Source: a virus. Taken from it: DNA of 18,842 nt. The notes beneath the pieces were generated by a model that saw only the letters and a list, made by a program, of their open reading frames with translations, did not search any database and was not told the DNA's origin. Made by a program: the position numbers and the translations under genes. This document shows positions 2,130 through 18,170 of the stretch, piece after piece. Where the stretch lies: UHGV virus genome UHGV-0125022. The stretch is one strand, 5' to 3'. The number at the start of each line of letters is the position of its first letter. Position 1 is the stretch's first letter.

Positions 2130-3062
2130 TTAAAGAACCGATTTAACAAGATGGTTTTTACGGTACAGACCTATGCGATCATTGTGAATCTCAGTAGTCT
2201 CCACTAAAAGAGAAACAATCTGTCCGACCTTGTGTTTTTTTTGTATTAAATCTAGCATTTCAATCGGATAGGAAGCCTTTAAATGTTCACCACCAACATC
2301 AAGCTCCAGCTTCCCATATTTGGATAGAACGACCAGTTCGCCTGTAACCGTTTCAGTAATGGGAGGTGATGAAATGGTTGATGTAAGTCTACTCACCAAG
2401 TACTTAATTTTATTGGAGTCAATAGTTACCACCTTGGTGCCATTACTAAATGGACCGGTCCAACTTGCATCAAATGTTAAGTTGTGTTTATCGCATTCCT
2501 CTACGATTCTCTTAAGGCTTACAGTGGAATTGTATCCAATTTCAGCGACGTGATTCATGAAGTTGTTGTCGTCATCGCTTAACAACAAATCGAATATGCC
2601 TTTTACAGCCTTGCTGGGTACTGTTTCTACTAATTCTGCTATTCCTGTAGAGAAGGTGACGCCCAATTTTGTAGACCCAGGGGATAAATCAGCCAGCCTG
2701 AGGTTTAAGGAGCTTTTCACGTCGTAGGGAACTTTTTTTGAGTCCTTGCCTGAGGCAATTTTGTGTGTTGCTCTTTGTATTAGCGCTGCAAGATTTGTTG
2801 AAATAGCCCCAAGCAGCTCTAAAGGAATAGAGCCAAAGTCAACCTCAGAGCCTTTCAGCCGCAGCTCAAAAAAATCGATAAGTGGGTGCCGACTATCTTG
2901 CTTTAATTTTTCGGCCTTCAAATCGCTCAGATGAGAATCCATGGAGCGATAAAGAAGCATGTCAGCAAAGGACCTGGTTTTGTTTTGCTTCATTGCATCG
3001 ACTTCTTTTTGAATGAAATCAATGCGTTTATCGCAATTTTTAAACATTGATTTATCATTCAT
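2130..3062 (-). CDS. Hypothetical 310-aa protein, distal gene of the two-gene module downstream of cI; candidate superinfection-exclusion or defence effector
   Basis: Long ORF with GAGGA Shine-Dalgarno 8 nt upstream. Start overlaps the upstream stop as ATGA. AT-rich. No motif I can assign. Confidence 0.7.
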   Translation of the reverse strand: MNDKSMFKNCDKRIDFIQKEVDAMKQNKTRSFADMLLYRSMDSHLSDLKAEKLKQDSRHPLIDFFELRLKGSEVDFGSIPLELLGAISTNLAALIQRATHKIASGKDSKKVPYDVKSSLNLRLADLSPGSTKLGVTFSTGIAELVETVPSKAVKGIFDLLLSDDDNNFMNHVAEIGYNSTVSLKRIVEECDKHNLTFDASWTGPFSNGTKVVTIDSNKIKYLVSRLTSTISSPPITETVTGELVVLSKYGKLELDVGGEHLKASYPIEMLDLIQKKHKVGQIVSLLVETTEIHNDRIGLYRKNHLVKSVL

Positions 3063-3538
3063 AAAAAAATCCTCACTAACCCTTTCGGGTTTTCACTGCG
3101 ATCAAAACCAAACCAACCGCGCCAGTAGCTACGCCAGTACTCATAATCATAGTTAGGGTCATCTAAATTCTTCATGAGTAGTAGGACATCAATTTTGTAG
3201 TTTTGTTTGATGTAGTTTCGGTCAAGCAAATTATCGACGCGGCCCCGAAGCATGACAGGTATTGAGTTTATATTGCTATAGTCACATACCAACAAAATAT
3301 CAATATCATCAGGCTCTGGTTTAGACGTGGTGTATGAACCATCAACCCATATTTCTGTAAAACAGCCATATTGAGCAGATAATTCTCGAATAGATTCGAG
3401 TAGCTGTATAAAATTACAGTATAGCATGCCTCGCCTGGATGATGAAGGAAAGCAATCGACACAATACGATTTTAATCCAGCTTCATCCATGTCATGGAAC
3501 CCTGGCTCAAACAGGGGTGGGTAATTAATTTTATCCAT
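3059..3538 (-). CDS. Minimal nucleotidyltransferase (Pol-beta superfamily, MNT-like) fold protein, 159 aa
   Basis: WVDGSYTTSKPEPDDIDILLV matches the hG[GS]-x9-13-Dh[DE]h nucleotidyltransferase signature. A further Asp-bearing strand KIDVLLL lies downstream. AAGG Shine-Dalgarno upstream. Confidence 0.65.
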   Translation of the reverse strand: MDKINYPPLFEPGFHDMDEAGLKSYCVDCFPSSSRRGMLYCNFIQLLESIRELSAQYGCFTEIWVDGSYTTSKPEPDDIDILLVCDYSNINSIPVMLRGRVDNLLDRNYIKQNYKIDVLLLMKNLDDPNYDYEYWRSYWRGWFGFDRSENPKGLVRIFL

Positions 3539-3737: not shown

Positions 3738-4442
3738 TCACGAACTTTTCAGCCACTCCCTTGCCTCGATGTCATCCAGATGGCGAGATTGCTTCAGAAT
3801 ACCAGCCACATACTCCACCTTTGCTACTTGATGATAAGGCAACGTTATTGGCCTGTGGTCTTGGTTGATGCTTGTAAATTGGTATTCTCCATCTCTGTCA
3901 TAGCCAAGAACCTTAATCATGTTGTGTCCTTCAACGGTTCTGACAAACACCTCATCACCCGGGAATACTTTGGTGTTAGGCTCAATGAGTACATATTCTC
4001 CTGATTTTATTCTAGGCCACATGCTGTCTCCTTTCACACGAAGGCCAAAGGCATCTGGATCATCGCTATAAATTTTGAGCCACCCATCGCGCTCTTCGGT
4101 CATCTCGATGGCACCATCAACACCAAGAATTGCCTCACCAACCACGCGCACTAACCCTTTTCTTACCTGACCGACAAAAGTTAAAGAATCTGAGCATGAT
4201 GCAATTGGTGTTACATCATGTACCAAATCAAGCCACCCATTAGGTAACCCAAGTGCGGCTTCAAATTTTCTTGCTAGTTTATCCCCTATGTTTCGAGTGC
4301 TTTTTTCACCGGAGACTTGCGTGAGTTGAGAAGGGCTAACCCCAAGCTTATCGGCAAAGCTTGCATTAGTGTTACCCGCGATTTTTTTATGCTCATCTAG
4401 CAAAAACGCCAGATTCGATTTGCGAATATCTTTGTTTTCCAT
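3738..4442 (-). CDS. cI: CI-type prophage repressor (N-terminal HTH plus C-terminal S24/LexA-like autopeptidase domain)
   Basis: 234-aa protein with an HTH-like N-terminus and C-terminal S24-type domain (GDSMWPRIKSGEYVLIE, then a downstream Lys). Divergent from cro across an operator-rich intergenic region. Confidence 0.9.
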   Translation of the reverse strand: MENKDIRKSNLAFLLDEHKKIAGNTNASFADKLGVSPSQLTQVSGEKSTRNIGDKLARKFEAALGLPNGWLDLVHDVTPIASCSDSLTFVGQVRKGLVRVVGEAILGVDGAIEMTEERDGWLKIYSDDPDAFGLRVKGDSMWPRIKSGEYVLIEPNTKVFPGDEVFVRTVEGHNMIKVLGYDRDGEYQFTSINQDHRPITLPYHQVAKVEYVAGILKQSRHLDDIEAREWLKSS

Positions 4443-8758: not shown

Positions 8759-8934
8759 TGCTTAGCCCATCCCAATCCCTTCAATACCAGAAAGAAAGCG
8801 TCGAGCGGGCTTTAACGTGCGCTAACTGCGGTCAGAAGCTGCATGTGCTGGAAGTTCACGTGTGTGAGCACTGCTGCGCAGAACTGATGAGCGATCCGAA
8901 TAGCTCAATGTACGAGGAAGAAGACGATGAATGA
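8758..8934 (+). CDS. ninF: NinF-like small Cys-rich protein (58 aa)
   Basis: Hand-translated: [58 protein letters not shown]. Too short for the ORF track. TAATG overlap with the upstream stop. Matches lambda NinF as recalled. Confidence 0.7.
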   Translation: MLSPSQSLQYQKESVERALTCANCGQKLHVLEVHVCEHCCAELMSDPNSSMYEEEDDE

Positions 8935-9649
8935 GTTAATAAATGGCAATGCCATCAAAATGACAAGCATTGAAATCGCTGAGTTGGTGGGTAAGCGTCA
9001 TGACAATGTGAAACGTACCATCGAAACGCTGGCTAAAAATGGTGTTATCCGGCTTCCTCAAATTGAGGTTTCCGAAAGAATCAATAACTTAGGGTTCAAT
9101 GTTCAGTACGAGCATTACGTCTTCGAAGGCGAACAAGGTAAGCGAGATAGTATTGTTGTTGTTGCCCAGTTGTCGCCAGAGTTCACCGCTCGCCTTGTTG
9201 ACCGCTGGCGAGAGCTTGAAGAAACTGCGGTTAATATCCCCAAAACGCTACCAGAAGCGTTGCGCCTTGCTGCTGATCTTGCTGAGCAGAAAATGCAACT
9301 GGAAAACCAGCTCGCAATTGCCGCACCTAAAGTTGAGTTTGCCGATCGCGTTGGCGAGGCCAGCGGAATTTTGATTGGAAACTTTGCAAAGGTTGTTGGA
9401 ATTGGTCCAAACAAACTGTTTGCGTGGATGCGCGATCACAAAATCCTTATTGCTTCAGGTTCCCGGCGCAATGTGCCAATGCAGGAATATATGGAGCGCG
9501 GCTATTTCACAGTGAAAGAAACAGCGGTCAACACAAATCACGGAATACAGATATCGTTCACCACAAAAATCACCGGGCGTGGTCAACAGTGGCTGACCAG
9601 AAAGCTGCTCGATAACGGAATGCTGAAAGTAACAGGGGAGGCTGCTTAA
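8927..9649 (+). CDS. Phage antirepressor (N-terminal Rha-type domain plus C-terminal KilA-C/AntB-type domain)
   Basis: N-terminal SIEIAELVGKRHDNVKRTIE is the Rha-family hallmark. 240 aa with the C-terminal region typical of KilA-C antirepressors. Confidence 0.75.
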   Translation: MNELINGNAIKMTSIEIAELVGKRHDNVKRTIETLAKNGVIRLPQIEVSERINNLGFNVQYEHYVFEGEQGKRDSIVVVAQLSPEFTARLVDRWRELEETAVNIPKTLPEALRLAADLAEQKMQLENQLAIAAPKVEFADRVGEASGILIGNFAKVVGIGPNKLFAWMRDHKILIASGSRRNVPMQEYMERGYFTVKETAVNTNHGIQISFTTKITGRGQQWLTRKLLDNGMLKVTGEAA

Positions 9650-11145: not shown

Positions 11146-11183
11146 TTGACTTTTTGAATAAAGTTGGGTAAATTTGACCCAAC
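11146..11183 (+). promoter_or_regulatory. Late promoter pR' with qut region (-35 TTGACT 11146-11151, -10 TAAATT 11169-11174, 17-bp spacer)
   Basis: TTGACTTTTTGAATAAAGTTGGGTAAATTTGACCCAACGATGGGTTAAT is near-identical to the lambda pR'/qut sequence as recalled. Confidence 0.75.
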
Positions 11184-11278: not shown

Positions 11279-11695
11279 TTAAGGGAGGGTTTTCATTACG
11301 CTATCAATCTCCCTTCCTTCAAATCTTGAAGTCCAGCCGCAGGAGCCGCAATGGTAAGGAAAGTCATCGAACCCGCTACCGACCTGTTTAAGACAGTTGG
11401 GGCAATAAACCGCGCTGATATACCCACCCGCGGGATTTTTTCTAAAGGCCGCACCCATGTGCTCGACAAACTCATCCTTTGCCCGATAAGCCGCTATTTC
11501 CTTCTCAAGTTCTACGTTCTTGGCTTTCGCCTCGGCAAGTTCTGCTATGGTGGCAGCATGGGCTTTTTGAAGTACGTCGATCTGCTCTCCAATGAAAGCG
11601 ATGCGCTCGCGCAGGACCTCGTTACTTTGCACAGCAGAAAGCGCGCCGATCCCGTTTTTAAGGGACGCGATAAGTAATCCTACATCCATGGTCAT
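11279..11695 (-). CDS. Hypothetical cargo protein: N-terminal coiled-coil-like region plus C-terminal CxxC...CxxC zinc ribbon, convergent to late transcription
   Basis: 138-aa ORF. C-terminal CPNC-x14-CGSC. N-terminal heptad-like, Ala/Glu/Lys-rich segment. AGGGA Shine-Dalgarno. Start may be M1 (11695) or M3 (11689). Confidence 0.6.
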   Translation of the reverse strand: MTMDVGLLIASLKNGIGALSAVQSNEVLRERIAFIGEQIDVLQKAHAATIAELAEAKAKNVELEKEIAAYRAKDEFVEHMGAAFRKNPAGGYISAVYCPNCLKQVGSGFDDFPYHCGSCGWTSRFEGREIDSVMKTLP

Positions 11696-11944
11696 TCCCT
11701 AATTGTCTGTGGAATGACCAATTTAGCAATTTCCTTTATCTGTGGAAAGCAGGGAAACCACGCGCCGGGCGTGGATAAATATCCCGGTATTGAATCGACT
11801 GTTGGCTGCCGCTTGGCGGCCTTTTTCATTTCAGGCTCACGGGAATCATCCGCTACGTGCTTTGTTGATAAATCCATCCCGTGAAGCCTGACCCTTTTCA
11901 AACACACACACACAGCGCCATCCGAAAAATCGGAGGTGAGGCCT

Positions 11945-12268: not shown

Positions 12269-12701
12269 CGGAATTGCTCTGATAAAAAAATTTGAAGGTT
12301 GTCGGCTGACTGCTTACCCCGACCCCGGAACGGGAGATGCGCCGTGGACCATCGGCTATGGCTGGACCCATCCGGTTGACGGAAAGCCAGTAAAGCGCGG
12401 TATGACTATCGACCAGCAAACCGCTGACAGGCTTCTGAAAACAGGGCTTGTTGGTTATGAGAATGACGTGCTGAAAGTTGTCAGGGTGAAGCTGACACAA
12501 GGCCAGTTCGACGCACTGGTGTCGTTCGCTTACAACGTTGGGTCGCGTGCTCTTTCCACATCTACACTGCTGAAAAAGCTGAATGCTGGCGATATAAAAG
12601 GCGCGGCAGATGAATTTCTGCGCTGGAATAAATCAGGCGGAAAGGTGATGCCGGGGCTCACGAATCGCCGCAAGGCAGAGCGAGCTCTGTTCCTGTCATG
12701 A
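12252..12701 (+). CDS. R: Endolysin, GH24 phage lysozyme (P22 gp19 type; not the lambda R transglycosylase)
   Basis: C-terminal [11 protein letters not shown] and the overall sequence resemble P22 lysozyme as recalled. No SAR-like N-terminal hydrophobic segment. GGAG Shine-Dalgarno before the ATG at 12252. Confidence 0.85.
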
Positions 12702-13165
12702 TTAGCGCACTGGTTAAGCGTTACTGGCTGCAGTTGCTGGTGCTGGCGTTAATCGGCGCACTGGCTTTCTTCGTGAACCACTACCGCGACAACGCCATCA
12801 CTTACAGAGACCAGCGCGATAAGGCCACTGAGAAACTCCTCCTGGCGACCGCCACCATTAAAGACATGCAGACCCGCCAGCGTGATGTCGCTGCACTGGA
12901 TGCCAAATACACCGGAGAACTGGCTGATGCGAAAGAAACCATTGAGCGTCTGCATAGCGATGTCATTGCTGGCCGTAAGCGGCTGCAAGTCGCCGCCACC
13001 TGTGCAAAGTCAACGACCGGAGCCAGCAGCATGGGCGATGGAGAAAGCCCAAGACTTACAGCAGATGCTGAACTCAATTATTACCGTCTACGAAGTGGAA
13101 TCGACAAGATAACCGCGCAGGTTAACTACCTGCAGGAATACATCAGGACGCAATGCCTGAAATAA
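12698..13165 (+). CDS. Rz: Spanin inner-membrane subunit Rz (i-spanin)
   Basis: N-terminal TM segment then [17 protein letters not shown] and [13 protein letters not shown], close to lambda Rz as recalled. ATGA overlap with the lysozyme stop. Confidence 0.85.
12927..13112 (+). CDS. Rz1: Spanin outer-membrane lipoprotein Rz1 (o-spanin), embedded in the +1 frame of Rz
   Basis: Hand-translated 61-aa protein [25 protein letters not shown]... with lipobox LAVSGC and a Pro-rich mature part, wholly inside Rz. Confidence 0.7.
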
Positions 13166-13196
13166 TTTTTTTTGCAAATCACAAAGTCAATTTAAT

Positions 13197-13222
13197 GAGC
13201 CTCGCGATGCGGGGTTTTTTTT
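13197..13222 (+). terminator. Rho-independent terminator after the lysis cassette
   Basis: CCUCGC/GCGGGG stem (one G-U pair, short loop) followed by eight T residues. Confidence 0.5.
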
Positions 13223-13371
13223 ACATCTGAATTTCACAGCGCATCTCACGCGCATATTACATCACCCGAGCCTTTCAGAAAGTTGAGCCTGAGAACTGCC
13301 GTATATGGTGGCGACCATCTCGGGGCGGCTTTTCTGTGAGACAGGCTCACTTTCTAAAAGGTAAAGACGCT

Positions 13372-13890
13372 ATGAATAATCCGTCAGTTATTCCGGCCTT
13401 CGACTTCCGCGAAATGGTCACGACCCTCGACAACAAGATAATCACCACATCACTCAAGGTGGCGGATTACTTTGGCAAGCGACACAAAGACGTTTTGCGT
13501 GCCATACGTAACCTGAAATGCTCCGATGACTTCACCCAGCGCAATTTTGCGCCCATTGATTTCATTGATAAAAATGGCGATGTTCAGCCTATGTATAACA
13601 TCACCCGCGACGGATGCATGATGCTAGTGATGGGATTCACTGGCAAAACAGCTGCCGCAGTGAAGGAGTGTTACATCAATGCCTTCAACTGGATGGCCGA
13701 GCAGCTAAACCGGCGCATGGCGATGGGTGAAGAATTGCAGCATCGCTACGCCATCAAAGAAACGCGCTCAAAGCTGAAAGGCACGATCGGAAGCCGTTTG
13801 ATGAACGAGCGGAAGAAAGAGAAGCGCGTCCTGGAGCTCGAACATGAGCACATCATGCAGGTAACGCAGCCGGAATTACTTATTGGCTGA
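13372..13890 (+). CDS. rha: Rha-family phage regulatory protein
   Basis: N-terminal TSLKVADYFGKRHKDVLRAIRNL is the Rha-domain hallmark. ORF track 13336..13890; ATG at 13372 preferred. Confidence 0.7.
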   Translation: MNNPSVIPAFDFREMVTTLDNKIITTSLKVADYFGKRHKDVLRAIRNLKCSDDFTQRNFAPIDFIDKNGDVQPMYNITRDGCMMLVMGFTGKTAAAVKECYINAFNWMAEQLNRRMAMGEELQHRYAIKETRSKLKGTIGSRLMNERKKEKRVLELEHEHIMQVTQPELLIG

Positions 13891-13950
13891 ACGCGGCATT
13901 ACAGAAGCCCTTCATTGAGGGGCTTCGATAATGGAGCACTGGAATTATTC

Positions 13951-14571
13951 ATGAACAGACCACACCCACCAGCGCATTTTACGATGCCACCTGACCCGAA
14001 GCCGTACATCAGCATTATGCCCGCTAATGACGTTGGCGAGTGGCTGAATCAGCACATCCTGAGCGATGAGGGTGACCTCTACAACCATGACCACCAGCAT
14101 TTGCTTGAAGCGGATCTGTGCTTTCTCTGGGCATCGAACGCTTTCGAGAAGAAAGGGCGTTCCGTGCTGGGGCAGGCGGAAGAAGTGGCAATGCGGGCCG
14201 GAGGCTGGCAGAAAGCGCGGATGGAGCAGCAGATGTATGAATGGTTCGGCAGGGTGCCGCAGTTCATCATCACGCTGGCCGCCGATTACTGCTCGCAATG
14301 TTCCGATCTGGAATTCTGCGCGCTGATAGAGCACGAGCTTTATCACATCTGCCAAGCGACAGATGAATTTGGTGCGCCGAAGTTCACGCAGGAAGGGCAG
14401 CCAAAGCTGAAGCTGCGCGGCCATGACGTGGAAGAGTTTGTGGGCGTGGTTCGCCGTTACGGTGCAAGCCGGGACGTGCAGGAAATGATTGATGCGGCGA
14501 ATCAGCCAGCGGAGGTTGCTCATCTCGATATTGCCAGAGCGTGCGGGACGTGCATGTTAAAGCTGGCGTGA
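13951..14571 (+). CDS. Hypothetical protein with HExxH motif (putative zinc metallopeptidase-like)
   Basis: IEHELYHICQ contains HExxH. ORF track starts at a TTG at 13915; first ATG is 13951 with a weak Shine-Dalgarno. Confidence 0.55.
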   Translation: MNRPHPPAHFTMPPDPKPYISIMPANDVGEWLNQHILSDEGDLYNHDHQHLLEADLCFLWASNAFEKKGRSVLGQAEEVAMRAGGWQKARMEQQMYEWFGRVPQFIITLAADYCSQCSDLEFCALIEHELYHICQATDEFGAPKFTQEGQPKLKLRGHDVEEFVGVVRRYGASRDVQEMIDAANQPAEVAHLDIARACGTCMLKLA

Positions 14572-14602: not shown

Positions 14603-15076
14603 ATGGCTGCTTTAAAACCGGAAGTAAAAGCCTTCATCATTCAATCGCTTGCGTGCTTTGATACTCCTTCTCAAGTTGTCGAATCCGTCAAGAAAGAGTT
14701 TGGGTTAACTATTTCTCGCCAGCAAGCCGAAGCACACGACCCAACCAAGGCTAGTAGCAAAGGTTTAGCCAAAAAGTGGATCGAGATGTTCCACGCGACG
14801 CGCAAACGGTTCCTGACCGAAACCAGCGACATTCCGATCGCGAACAAATCCTATCGCCTCCGCGTGCTTGACCGTATGGCAACCAAAACCGAGGGGATGA
14901 AAAACTTCTCCCTGACGGCGCAGCTCATTGAGCAGGCCGCGAAAGAGGTTGGCGATGCATACACCAATAAGCTGAAGGTTGAGAGCACTGGCAAGGATGG
15001 CGGCCCGATCAAGACCGAGACGACCAACCTCACCGCAGATCAGGCCGCAGAGATTTACCGCAAGATGATGGGGTGA
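14603..15076 (+). CDS. Putative terminase small subunit (DUF2280-like)
   Basis: 157-aa protein immediately upstream of, and overlapping, the large terminase. Basic N-terminal region. Assignment is mainly positional. Confidence 0.6.
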
Positions 15077-16701
15077 TCATGCCTCTTCCGTTTGAATTCG
15101 ATTTCAGAAACCCTGATTACCAGATGGTTTTTGAATGGCGGATGGAGCGCTTACAGCGCATTCGCCAGAACCCTGAAATGCTGCCAGCGCTAAAGCAGTT
15201 TTACCGCACCAACCCGGCACAGTTCATCATCGACTGGGGGATGACTACTGACCCGCGTAACATCGATTATGGCCTGCCGGTCACCATCCCTTTTCTGCTG
15301 TTCCCGAAACAGGAAGAGTGGATTCACTGGATCATGGAGCGGCGCGAACGACTGGAGAACGGCATCACCGAAAAGAGCCGCGAAATGGGGCTCAGCTGGA
15401 CGGCGATCGGGCTGGCCTGTTCGCTCTGCCTCTTCAACAAAGAAATGGTCATCGGCTTCGGCTCCCGTAAAGAGGAATACGTCGACAGCACCGGAGACCC
15501 GAAGGCGCTGTTCTGGAAGGCGCGCAAGTTCGTGGAAACGCTGCCCATCGAGTTTCGTGGTTCGTGGGACGAGAAGAAGCATGCGCCGTATATGCGCGTT
15601 GAGTTTCCCGATACTGGCGCGGTTATCAAAGGCGAGGCTGGCGACAATATCGGACGTGGTGACCGTACCACGCTCTACCTGGTGGATGAAGCTGCATTCC
15701 TCCAGCGTCCTCTGTTGATTGATGCGGCGCTGTCGCAAACCACCCGTTGCCGTATTGACCTGAGCTCGGTTAATGGCATGGCGAACCCGTTCGCGCAGAA
15801 GCGCCACGGCGGAAAAATACCAGTATTCACGTTCCACTGGCGGGATGATCCTCGCAAGGATGAAGAGTGGTATCGCAGGGAGTGCGAGAAAATCGACAAT
15901 CCGGTGGTGGTGGCGCAGGAACTTGACCTGAACTACAGCGCATCTGCGGAAGGCGTCCTGATCCCGTCCGACTGGGTACAGGCTGCCGTCGACGCGCATA
16001 TCAAACTTGGTATTCAGCCAACGGGCAAGCGACTGGGCGCGATGGACGTCGCCGACGAAGGCCGGGACAAAAACGCCTTTTCGACCCGTCACGGCTTCCT
16101 TCTGGAGAACGTGCGTGAATGGTCCGGCGTTGGCAGCGACATTTACCAGTCCGTTGAGAAGGTCTTCGGCTTTTGCGAACAGGACAACCTCGAAGAATTT
16201 CGCTTCGACGAGGACGGCCTGGGCGCTGGCGTTCGCGGCGATGCACGCGCCATCAACGAACTGCGTAACGCTGCGCGCCGACCGTCAATACTCGCCACAC
16301 CGTTTCGCGGTAGCGGCGCGGTGTTTGATCCGGACGACGAAGCGGTGCGCGGCGACAACGGACAGGCCGCCCGCCTGAATAAGGACTTCTTCGCTAACGC
16401 CAAGGCCCAGAGCTGGTGGCATTTACGCAAGCTTTTCCAGAACACCTATCGCGCCGTGGTTGAGGGCATGGCCTACAACCCGGACGAAATCATCTCAATC
16501 AGCAGCGCCATGGCGAGCAAAGACAAACTCATCATCGAGCTGTCGCAGCCGACCTACTCCATTAATGGCGTGGGGAAAATCGTTGTTGATAAACAGCCTG
16601 ATGGCACCAAGTCGCCGAACCTCGCCGACTCGGTGATGATCAGCTACGCGCCAATGAATTCAGCCCTGAACATCTGGGAGCTGCTAGGGAGACAGGCCTG
16701 A
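15073..16701 (+). CDS. Terminase large subunit
   Basis: 542 aa. ATPase-like segment then LYLVDEAAF (Walker B-like). Size and position before the portal. Start is GTG 15073 or ATG 15079. Confidence 0.85.
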
Positions 16702-18170
16702 TGGCACGAAACAAGCAATCCTCTCAGCGAACGGCACAGCCCACCGCTGACGGCTACGAGAACTTCGTCGCCCGCGTTGGGATGCAGACGCCTAACCAGC
16801 ATTCAGCATCGACCTACCGGGCGAACTCCACCAGCCGCAACCGCATGCTGGTGGAATGGTCATATCGCGGTTCGTGGGTTATCGGTGAAGCGGTCGACGC
16901 TATCCCGGACGATATGACCCGAAAGGGCATTCGCATCACTTCGGAGATTGACGCCAAAGACCGTGGCACCCTCGAAGCGCAACTGGATGAGTTGCAGATC
17001 TGGGATGCGCTGAACGACGTGCTGAAATGGTCGCGCCTCTACGGCGGCGCGGTCGGCTTCATCATGATCGAGGGGCAAGCACCAATGACCCCGCTGCGAC
17101 TCGAAACCATTGGCGAGGGCAAGTTTAAGGGCATTCTCCCGCTCGACCGCTGGATGATTAACCCGGTGCTGACACGCCGCATTAAAGAGATGGGGCCGGA
17201 CCTCGGCAAGCCTGAGTTTTACGACGTGGTGACCACCGCAACGGGCATTCCGGCCTGGCGCATCCATCACAGCCGCCTGATCCGCTTTGATGGCGTCACG
17301 CTGCCATTCCAGCAGAAGATGACCGAAAACGAATGGGGAATGTCGGTTGTAGAGCGTATCTGGGATCGGCTTACTGCGTTCGATAGCGCTACTGTCGGCG
17401 CGGCGCAGCTGGTCTATAAAGCGCATCTGCGTACCTATAGCGTGGAGAAGTTGCGCGAGCTTATCGCGCTTGGAGGCCCGGCGTTCGAAGCGTTGCTGAA
17501 GAACATCGACCTGATCCGCCAGTTCCAGAGCAATGAAGGTATGACGCTCATGGACTCGCGGGATAAGTTCGAAACCCACCAGTACAGCTTTAGTGGTCTG
17601 GATGACATTCTTTCGCAGTTTGCTGAGCAGATCAGCGGTGCCGTTGGTATCCCGCTGGTACGCCTGTTCGGTCAATCCCCGAAAGGCTTCTCTACTGGTG
17701 ATGCAGACCTCGCCAACTATTACGACCGGGTGAGCTCATTGCAGGAGCGCCGCTTACGGCTGCCGATGCGCCGGATACTGGACATTATGCACCGCTCGGA
17801 ACTCGGAAAGCCGCTGCCGGAAGATTTCACGTTTGAGTTTAACCCGCTATGGCAAATGTCAGACGTTGACCGATCAACGGTGGCCGTAAACACCACCAAC
17901 GCGATCAGTACCGCGCTGGGCGACGGATTGATGACGCGTAAGGCGGCGATGACCGACCTGCGCGAAAACTCTGACGTCACCGGCATCGGGGCATCCATTA
18001 CCGACGAGGATATCGAGAATGCCGAAGACGAAGCGCCGCCAGGCATCGGCGAACTTGGCGACAAACCGCCAGAGTCGCCAGGCGGAGATCCGATATCGAA
18101 CGAGCCTACGGCAGATAGCGCGGGCGGTCGGGGATATCGTAAATGGGCGCTACGATGGTTCAAACGATAG
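16701..18170 (+). CDS. Portal protein
   Basis: 489-aa protein directly after terL (ATGA overlap), with an acidic C-terminal tail. Position and size typical of portal. Confidence 0.8.
   Translation: MARNKQSSQRTAQPTADGYENFVARVGMQTPNQHSASTYRANSTSRNRMLVEWSYRGSWVIGEAVDAIPDDMTRKGIRITSEIDAKDRGTLEAQLDELQIWDALNDVLKWSRLYGGAVGFIMIEGQAPMTPLRLETIGEGKFKGILPLDRWMINPVLTRRIKEMGPDLGKPEFYDVVTTATGIPAWRIHHSRLIRFDGVTLPFQQKMTENEWGMSVVERIWDRLTAFDSATVGAAQLVYKAHLRTYSVEKLRELIALGGPAFEALLKNIDLIRQFQSNEGMTLMDSRDKFETHQYSFSGLDDILSQFAEQISGAVGIPLVRLFGQSPKGFSTGDADLANYYDRVSSLQERRLRLPMRRILDIMHRSELGKPLPEDFTFEFNPLWQMSDVDRSTVAVNTTNAISTALGDGLMTRKAAMTDLRENSDVTGIGASITDEDIENAEDEAPPGIGELGDKPPESPGGDPISNEPTADSAGGRGYRKWALRWFKR

Follow-up and report, generated by a model that had tools for sequence, protein, structure and literature searches.

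The window analyzed here, the whole 18,842-nucleotide (nt) stretch of UHGV virus genome UHGV-0125022, is a lambdoid temperate phage or prophage. Between its lysis and terminase genes it carries two genes that are unrelated things: an accessory gene for a Rha-family regulator and the head of the DNA packaging module, a gene for a predicted zinc metallopeptidase of family PF18894 with an HExxH motif. This HExxH gene is the fixed first gene of the packaging module and not cargo of a variable slot; only the Rha gene is inserted. When our two samples of related loci are pooled, the HExxH gene stands beside a gene for a DUF2280 protein, the presumed small terminase subunit (TerS), in 158 of 160 loci. 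A preliminary description of this DNA had placed two open reading frames (ORFs) on the plus strand after a post-lysis terminator and ahead of the presumed terS, an arrangement confirmed by the ORF coordinates and by a hairpin at 13197-13217. It had also assigned both genes to a variable accessory slot, which is right for Rha and wrong for the HExxH gene. The features of this region, with E-values (E) where they apply, are:

13197-13217, plus strand: terminator-like hairpin after Rz, with a 9-bp stem and a run of T, at the start of the variable accessory slot
13372-13890, plus strand: Rha-family regulator, 172 amino acids (aa) from an ATG start; an upstream GTG at 13336 would give 184 aa
13951-14571, plus strand: PF18894 "PhageMetallopep" predicted zinc metallopeptidase, 206 aa, isoelectric point (pI) 5.2
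14332-14346, plus strand: HELYH motif (H128, E129, L, Y, H132), at the end of a predicted helix (residues 119-131)
14419-14439, plus strand: GHDVEEF motif (residues 157-163), in which H158 or E161 is a candidate third zinc ligand
14603-15076, plus strand: DUF2280 protein, 157 aa, pI 9.4, presumed small terminase (PF10045, E 6e-49)
15073-16701, plus strand: large terminase subunit (TerL), 542 aa (phrog_2, terminase large subunit, E 2e-32)
16701-18170, plus strand: portal protein, HI1409 family (TIGR01555, E 3e-72)

Linkage of the HExxH Gene to DUF2280

Our first sample comprised 80 IMG/VR loci with homologues 72-100% identical to the window's HExxH protein, and in all 80 the DUF2280 gene lies immediately downstream, mostly after 30-39 nt. 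The second sample, which was independent, was seeded on a Rhizobium homologue and covered 80 prophages from 80 alpha-, beta-, and gammaproteobacterial species; a same-strand DUF2280 gene lies downstream in 78 of these, with a gap of less than 40 nt in 56 and of 140-711 nt in 22. The prophages with the longer intervening segment are mostly from Alphaproteobacteria, and in Rhizobium phage TM3_3_3 that segment contains an annotated reverse-strand gene.

The order PF18894, DUF2280, TerL recurs in named phages of diverse hosts, including Pseudomonas JBD44 (gp16-17-18), Acinetobacter Acba_14, Erwinia Gungnir39, Vibrio Athena1, Burkholderia BgManors32, and Pectobacterium ZF40, as well as Rhizobium TM3_3_3 with its one inserted gene. 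DUF2280 also follows both of the N-terminally extended PF18894 proteins that were read on metagenomic contigs. Phage records matching PF18894 and DUF2280 are equally numerous in Acinetobacter (62 vs. 62), Pseudomonas (44 vs. 44), Vibrio (8 vs. 8), and Burkholderia (7 vs. 7), and nearly so in Klebsiella (8 vs. 9). The linkage has exceptions among distant relatives (32-38% identity), some of which lack DUF2280; two of these lie just upstream of another small, TerS-like protein resembling a helix-turn-helix (HTH) protein together with TerL, or beside an HNH gene. A scan seeded on P0268 found nothing, and one seeded on P0236 found 4 loci only.

The TerL proteins encoded downstream belong to at least three unrelated families, including Terminase_3, Terminase_6N, and the GpA type, and also to the window's own type. 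Even where two metallopeptidases are more than 90% identical, the corresponding TerLs are BLAST-related in only 52% of locus pairs. The distances among metallopeptidases and among DUF2280 proteins, on the other hand, co-vary (r 0.79; Mantel test, 0 of 300).

The DUF2280 protein has the size, charge, and gene position expected of a TerS: it is small and basic, its gene lies immediately upstream of TerL and is coupled to it, with its end overlapping the TerL start by 4 nt, and it occupies the same place in all related loci. It is labeled "terminase small subunit" in phage Magia and corresponds to phrog_546, which is listed as "unknown function."

The HExxH Protein: Family, Conserved Residues, and Fold

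Nothing about the HExxH gene is unusual for its family, which is catalogued but uncharacterized. The protein matches PF18894 with 147.3 bits against a cut-off of 23.7 (E 3.6e-43; profile positions 2-134 of 134), and proteins 99% identical to it in Enterobacter and Citrobacter are already annotated "putative metallopeptidase." The preliminary description gave its length as 218 aa, and such an ORF does exist on the plus strand from a TTG at 13915, sharing the stop at 14571; the 206-aa form from the ATG at 13951 is favored, since homologues start at this codon, as do the database gene calls P0001 and P0002 (206 aa each). The family is large, with 3466 clusters at 90% identity (E<=1e-5) and 905 clusters at 50% identity (E<=1e-3), and between phages of alpha-, beta-, and gammaproteobacteria its members remain 45-75% identical. 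Neither the metallopeptidase nor the DUF2280 protein had a match in NCBIfam or PADLOC.

Residue conservation was counted in an alignment (A3) of 129 full-length representatives that are 33-80% identical. H128, E129, and H132 of the HELYH motif, along with G171, are present in 129 of 129, and the motif is therefore not a chance occurrence. Conservation is also high in and around the GHDVEEF motif (H158 in 128, D159 in 120, and E161 in 124 of the 129). HELYH would supply two zinc ligands and the catalytic glutamate, giving a putative active site of H128, E129, and H132 plus H158 or E161. Additional potential metal ligands are nearly invariant: a DHxH motif near the N-terminus (H48 in 125 and H50 in 122 representatives; nt 14092-14100) and a CGxC motif in the C-terminal tail, which is modeled with low confidence (C198 in 128 and C201 in 111; nt 14542-14553). 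These four residues might bind a second zinc in a structural role or belong to an autoinhibitory tail resembling a cysteine switch.

N-terminal extensions of 46-115 aa occur in 33 of the 129 representatives. The ten longest relatives matched PF18894 alone at E<=0.01, with no fused domain. A few members show weak matches to HTH families (HTH_Tnp_1, HTH_8/Fis, MerR), seen only at E<=1 and counted separately from the extensions; these hint at a link to DNA. Among Pfam signals in the family, only HTH_Tnp_1, matched weakly by 5 of 129 members, is of a transposase type; it may be the source of the label "transposase," which is carried by PHROG 513, the cluster to which the window protein belongs. 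The same label, in the integration/excision category, is widespread for PF18894 proteins in phage records, such as those of JBD44 (gp16), ZF40 (gp39), TRS1, and phiPSA1. Given the zincin core, the adjoining terminase genes, and the weakness of the HTH_Tnp_1 signal, the label looks like an annotation error.

An AlphaFold2 model built from the 129-sequence alignment is confident (pLDDT 93.7, pTM 0.89) and shows a zincin fold, in which a mixed beta-sheet is combined with an active-site helix carrying HExxH, structurally similar to solved zincins. The best structural matches are peptidases, and the likeness is at the level of the fold only: Foldseek returned no match in the PDB at E<=0.001 and only other PF18894 proteins in BFVD, and sequence searches of the PDB with the single protein and with the 129-sequence profile gave no match for the HExxH protein. 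Both properties by which the preliminary description proposed to judge the protein, a metallopeptidase fold in prediction and a motif conserved among homologues, are therefore present.

The more specific assignment to ImmA/IrrE (DUF955-type) proteins did not survive. Neither the window protein nor any of the other 128 members of A3 matched PF06114 (Peptidase_M78) at E<=1, and M78 proteins are not its closest structural relatives. Nor is the gene part of an immunity or regulatory locus with an XRE-type repressor substrate next to it: its neighbors in the late region are Rha and DUF2280/TerL. The window protein likewise has no match to PF10263 (SprT-like) or to a WLM domain. Sub-threshold SprT-like matches occur in 6 of 129 relatives (best E 0.012), and weak DUF5700 matches are the other secondary peptidase signal.

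The Rha Gene and the Variable Slot

The Rha-family assignment of the first gene is well founded. The protein scores 107 bits against PF09669 (cut-off 29.9, E 6e-31), 103 bits against TIGR02681 (cut-off 45.95, E 7e-30), and E 1e-76 against phrog_518; the 184-aa form from the GTG start is the one annotated in phi80. Window positions 13150-13933, which run from the last part of Rz through the terminator and rha, are 95% identical to phi80 DNA, and this homology stops within the 60-nt spacer that precedes the HExxH gene. Rha arrived with phi80-like lysis-side DNA. It shows no notable difference from the Rha proteins of phi80 and P22 (PF09669/TIGR02681) and sits at the same site, after Rz and the terminator. 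Homology to Klebsiella phage DNA (14191-14646) starts within the HExxH gene and continues into DUF2280. Over 1.5 kb around the two genes, the closest phage record is Citrobacter phage Omnitron (96.4%).

The site homologous to the hairpin is annotated in phi80 as a putative rightward terminator, and approximately 180 nt flanking the hairpin match many lambdoid and P22-like phages at 86-99%, with different genes beyond. Just 9 of the 80 related IMG/VR loci have a detectable Rha homologue, and the longest ORF just upstream of the HExxH gene falls into 57 unrelated clusters among 89 loci. Rha therefore sits in a hypervariable accessory slot and the HExxH gene does not. The functional pairing of Rha and protease suggested in the preliminary description is contradicted by this rarity and by the end of the phi80-like DNA between the two genes.

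The phi80 record remarks of rha "DNA synthesis inhibition in IHF- hosts." A second Rha-domain protein, combining Phage_pRha with an ANT/KilAC antirepressor domain, is encoded in the nin region (8927-9649, plus strand), so that this phage has two Rha-family genes.

Layout of the Window

The remaining features of the window, in gene order, are:

3738-4442, minus strand: CI homologue with a Peptidase_S24 domain, by domain search
After CI: CII, O, and a DnaC-like P protein
After P and ahead of the pR'-like promoter: the Rha+ANT protein, RusA, and Q
11146-11174: pR'-like promoter, downstream of Q
From 11936: holin
From 12252: lysozyme
12698-13165: Rz

Several side observations concern genes outside the packaging module. 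Directly downstream of CI, in a position like that of rexAB, an overlapping gene pair on the minus strand (2130-3062 and 3059-3538) matches the PADLOC candidate defense system PDC-M63 (B subunit, E 7e-45; A subunit, E 2e-41), the A subunit also being a Pfam DUF6932 protein. This PDC-M63-like pair is likely a prophage-encoded candidate defense that is expressed in the lysogen. Between Q/pR' and the holin, an antisense-oriented ORF (11279-11695, minus strand) encodes 138 aa with a C-terminal CxxC...CxxC; it has no Pfam or PADLOC match and may represent a moron carried in the late leader. At 11749-11826 (plus strand), a weak, sub-threshold match to the Hfq-binding small RNA isrK (21 bits against a gathering score of 50, E 0.17) overlaps a terminator-like hairpin (11804-11821) downstream of the pR'-like promoter, and this stretch may be no more than the short leader transcript that the late operon makes from pR'. 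Within the region of the Rha and HExxH genes, an Rfam scan gave no match, and an antisense ORF at 13945-14523 was rejected for want of any support.

Possible Roles of the HExxH Protein

Since its gene almost always stands directly ahead of one type of small-terminase gene, the HExxH protein probably acts in or around DNA packaging. The explanation we favor, and hold tentatively, makes it an active zinc metalloprotease, expressed late and functionally tied to DUF2280-type packaging initiation. In its favor are the linkage to DUF2280, the exchange of genes on both flanks, the co-divergence of the two proteins, the extensions and weak HTH matches among relatives, and the TerS-like neighbor of distant members that lack DUF2280. 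The protein, of ~23 kDa, is soluble and acidic, is built on the minimal zincin fold of PF18894, and would bind a single zinc. The late genes after Q and the pR'-like promoter all lie on one strand, a layout in keeping with the proposal that Q antitermination probably lets transcription from pR' reach the HExxH gene late, along with DUF2280, TerL, and the portal gene. The substrate would belong to the packaging-initiation step: it might be the adjacent basic HTH protein DUF2280/TerS, subject to processing or turnover, or, alternatively, proteins bound to the DNA that TerS recognizes. The wider proposition that PF18894 zincins in general are catalytically active, integral accessory components of DUF2280-type packaging initiation, for example through TerS processing or turnover or through the removal of proteins from the pac/cos region, is in our judgment rather doubtful. 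A head-maturation protease was considered and rejected, since the linked head and TerL modules vary.

Several observations weigh against a packaging role. The adjacency of two genes does not prove a physical or functional interaction between their products, and the TerS role of DUF2280 is itself presumed from gene position, sequence and profile searches of the PDB having given DUF2280 no match to solved TerS structures. Near-identical metallopeptidases pair with DUF2280 alleles that diverge by 23% on average, and the two genes are therefore not an unbreakable unit; recombination between them does occur, yet it always results in a DUF2280 gene. DUF2280 is also matched in 181 Salinibacter phage records (Salinibacter ruber; 33% identity), none of which is among the metallopeptidase-matching records. 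In the one record examined, Salinibacter phage 5_15 (L093 3432-4480), the DUF2280 gene is followed by the next large gene and preceded by one that encodes a hydrophobic 172-aa protein without a Pfam match. A TerS of the DUF2280 type can thus probably work without the protease. Furthermore, the window protein is acidic, with no extra domain and no DNA-binding domain of its own. Literature searches on PF18894 and DUF2280 yielded annotation mentions only, with no functional or experimental study, and one genome paper places genes of these types among "accessory genes" of unknown role. Apart from their bearing on this question, the Salinibacter phages are a possible natural "minus protease" comparison group.

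The same recombination between HExxH and DUF2280 alleles, and the existence of at least one Salinibacter DUF2280 phage lacking the HExxH gene, would also fit if the protein were instead a late counter-defense or host-takeover protease that cleaves a host protein, e.g., an immune sensor or effector that acts late in infection, its adjacency to TerS being a matter of history. Phage morons and anti-defense genes are often found where modules meet, and the accessory slot directly ahead of the gene is a hotspot for morons, as its 57 clusters illustrate; a small soluble zincin without a fused targeting domain would also suit such a role. We nevertheless regard this explanation as unlikely. Anti-defense genes are typically patchy and fast-evolving, whereas the HExxH gene is almost always found beside DUF2280 in the pooled loci and the family retains its high identity across three classes of Proteobacteria; moreover, the PADLOC search gave no match, and the literature searches no report of an anti-defense function.

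A non-protease role appears more improbable still. One possibility is a metal-dependent nuclease built on the zincin-like scaffold, of which YbeY is an example; another is a partner in assembly or regulation that would take part in packaging initiation without catalysis. Such a role would parallel the HNH proteins that assist the terminase in HK97-like phages. The motif of YbeY, however, is HxxxHxxxxxH, unlike the peptidase-type HExxH with an invariant glutamate seen here, and peptidases are the best structural matches.

It is very improbable that the protein is an ImmA/IrrE-like protease acting with Rha on repressor or antirepressor control, e.g., by cleaving CI, as the preliminary description had envisaged: although an HExxH motif and a zincin fold are present, ImmA-type proteases act on an adjacent HTH protein, DUF2280 is an HTH-like neighbor, and some relatives have N-terminal extensions or weak HTH-family matches, this model is largely refuted on family and context, by the family tests, the lack of association with Rha, the location of the gene in the late operon 9.5 kb from CI, and the S24-type CI itself, whose Peptidase_S24 domain is that of self-cleaving LexA-like repressors. 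The probability left over by the favored explanation and these three rivals belongs to something else.

Significance

We know of no protease in terminase-driven DNA packaging. Here, a putative protease with a strictly conserved active site is almost never parted from one TerS family while both flanks exchange freely, which suggests that packaging is initiated with a step so far unrecognized or that the protein has a conserved late function in the temperate phages of hosts such as Pseudomonas aeruginosa, Acinetobacter baumannii, Klebsiella, Vibrio, and Burkholderia. In our literature searches we found neither the near-obligate coupling of the zincin to DUF2280 across proteobacterial phages, independent of TerL type, nor the existence of N-terminally extended PF18894 variants. 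The accessory "moron" label used for the HExxH gene in published genome papers probably misreads the gene. The linkage is a testable lead, by a logic comparable to that which tied HNH proteins to the terminase through gene adjacency, and the question could be addressed in tractable phages such as JBD44 (gp16-gp17). If the proposal is true, these proteins would be the protease counterpart of the terminase-assisting HNH proteins across thousands of temperate phages of Proteobacteria.

Comparison with Known Systems

Within its own family (PF18894/COG4900-like/PHROG 513), the window protein shares the full-length match and the HExxH and GHDxE motifs, and nothing sets it apart. Among solved zincins, it resembles the minigluzincins (projannalysin 4jix, selecase 4qhf, and proabylysin 4jiu) and the cores of M48/M56 peptidases (BepA, HtpX, and BlaR1), with 10-15% identity over ~90 aligned residues and no sequence-level relationship; it differs from them in having an extra N-terminal subdomain with DHxH and a C-terminal tail with CGxC. 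From the DNA-dependent metalloproteases SprT, Spartan, and Wss1 the window protein differs in giving no PF10263 match, in being acidic and showing no extra domain as a DNA-binding module, and in the spacing to its candidate third ligand; some relatives carry N-terminal extensions or weak HTH-family matches. With ImmA, IrrE, and CapP (Peptidase_M78, COG2856, formerly DUF955), it has in common that an HExxH zincin is encoded beside a small HTH-type protein, a parallel that is conceptual and would hold only if DUF2280 proves to be the substrate of the HExxH protein.

The HNH endonucleases that assist the terminase in HK97-like phages have another fold and another chemistry, and their packaging role has been demonstrated, whereas that of PF18894 is purely hypothetical. 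What the two share is the genomic pattern, in which the gene for a small metal-dependent enzyme is conserved beside the terminase genes across mosaic phages.
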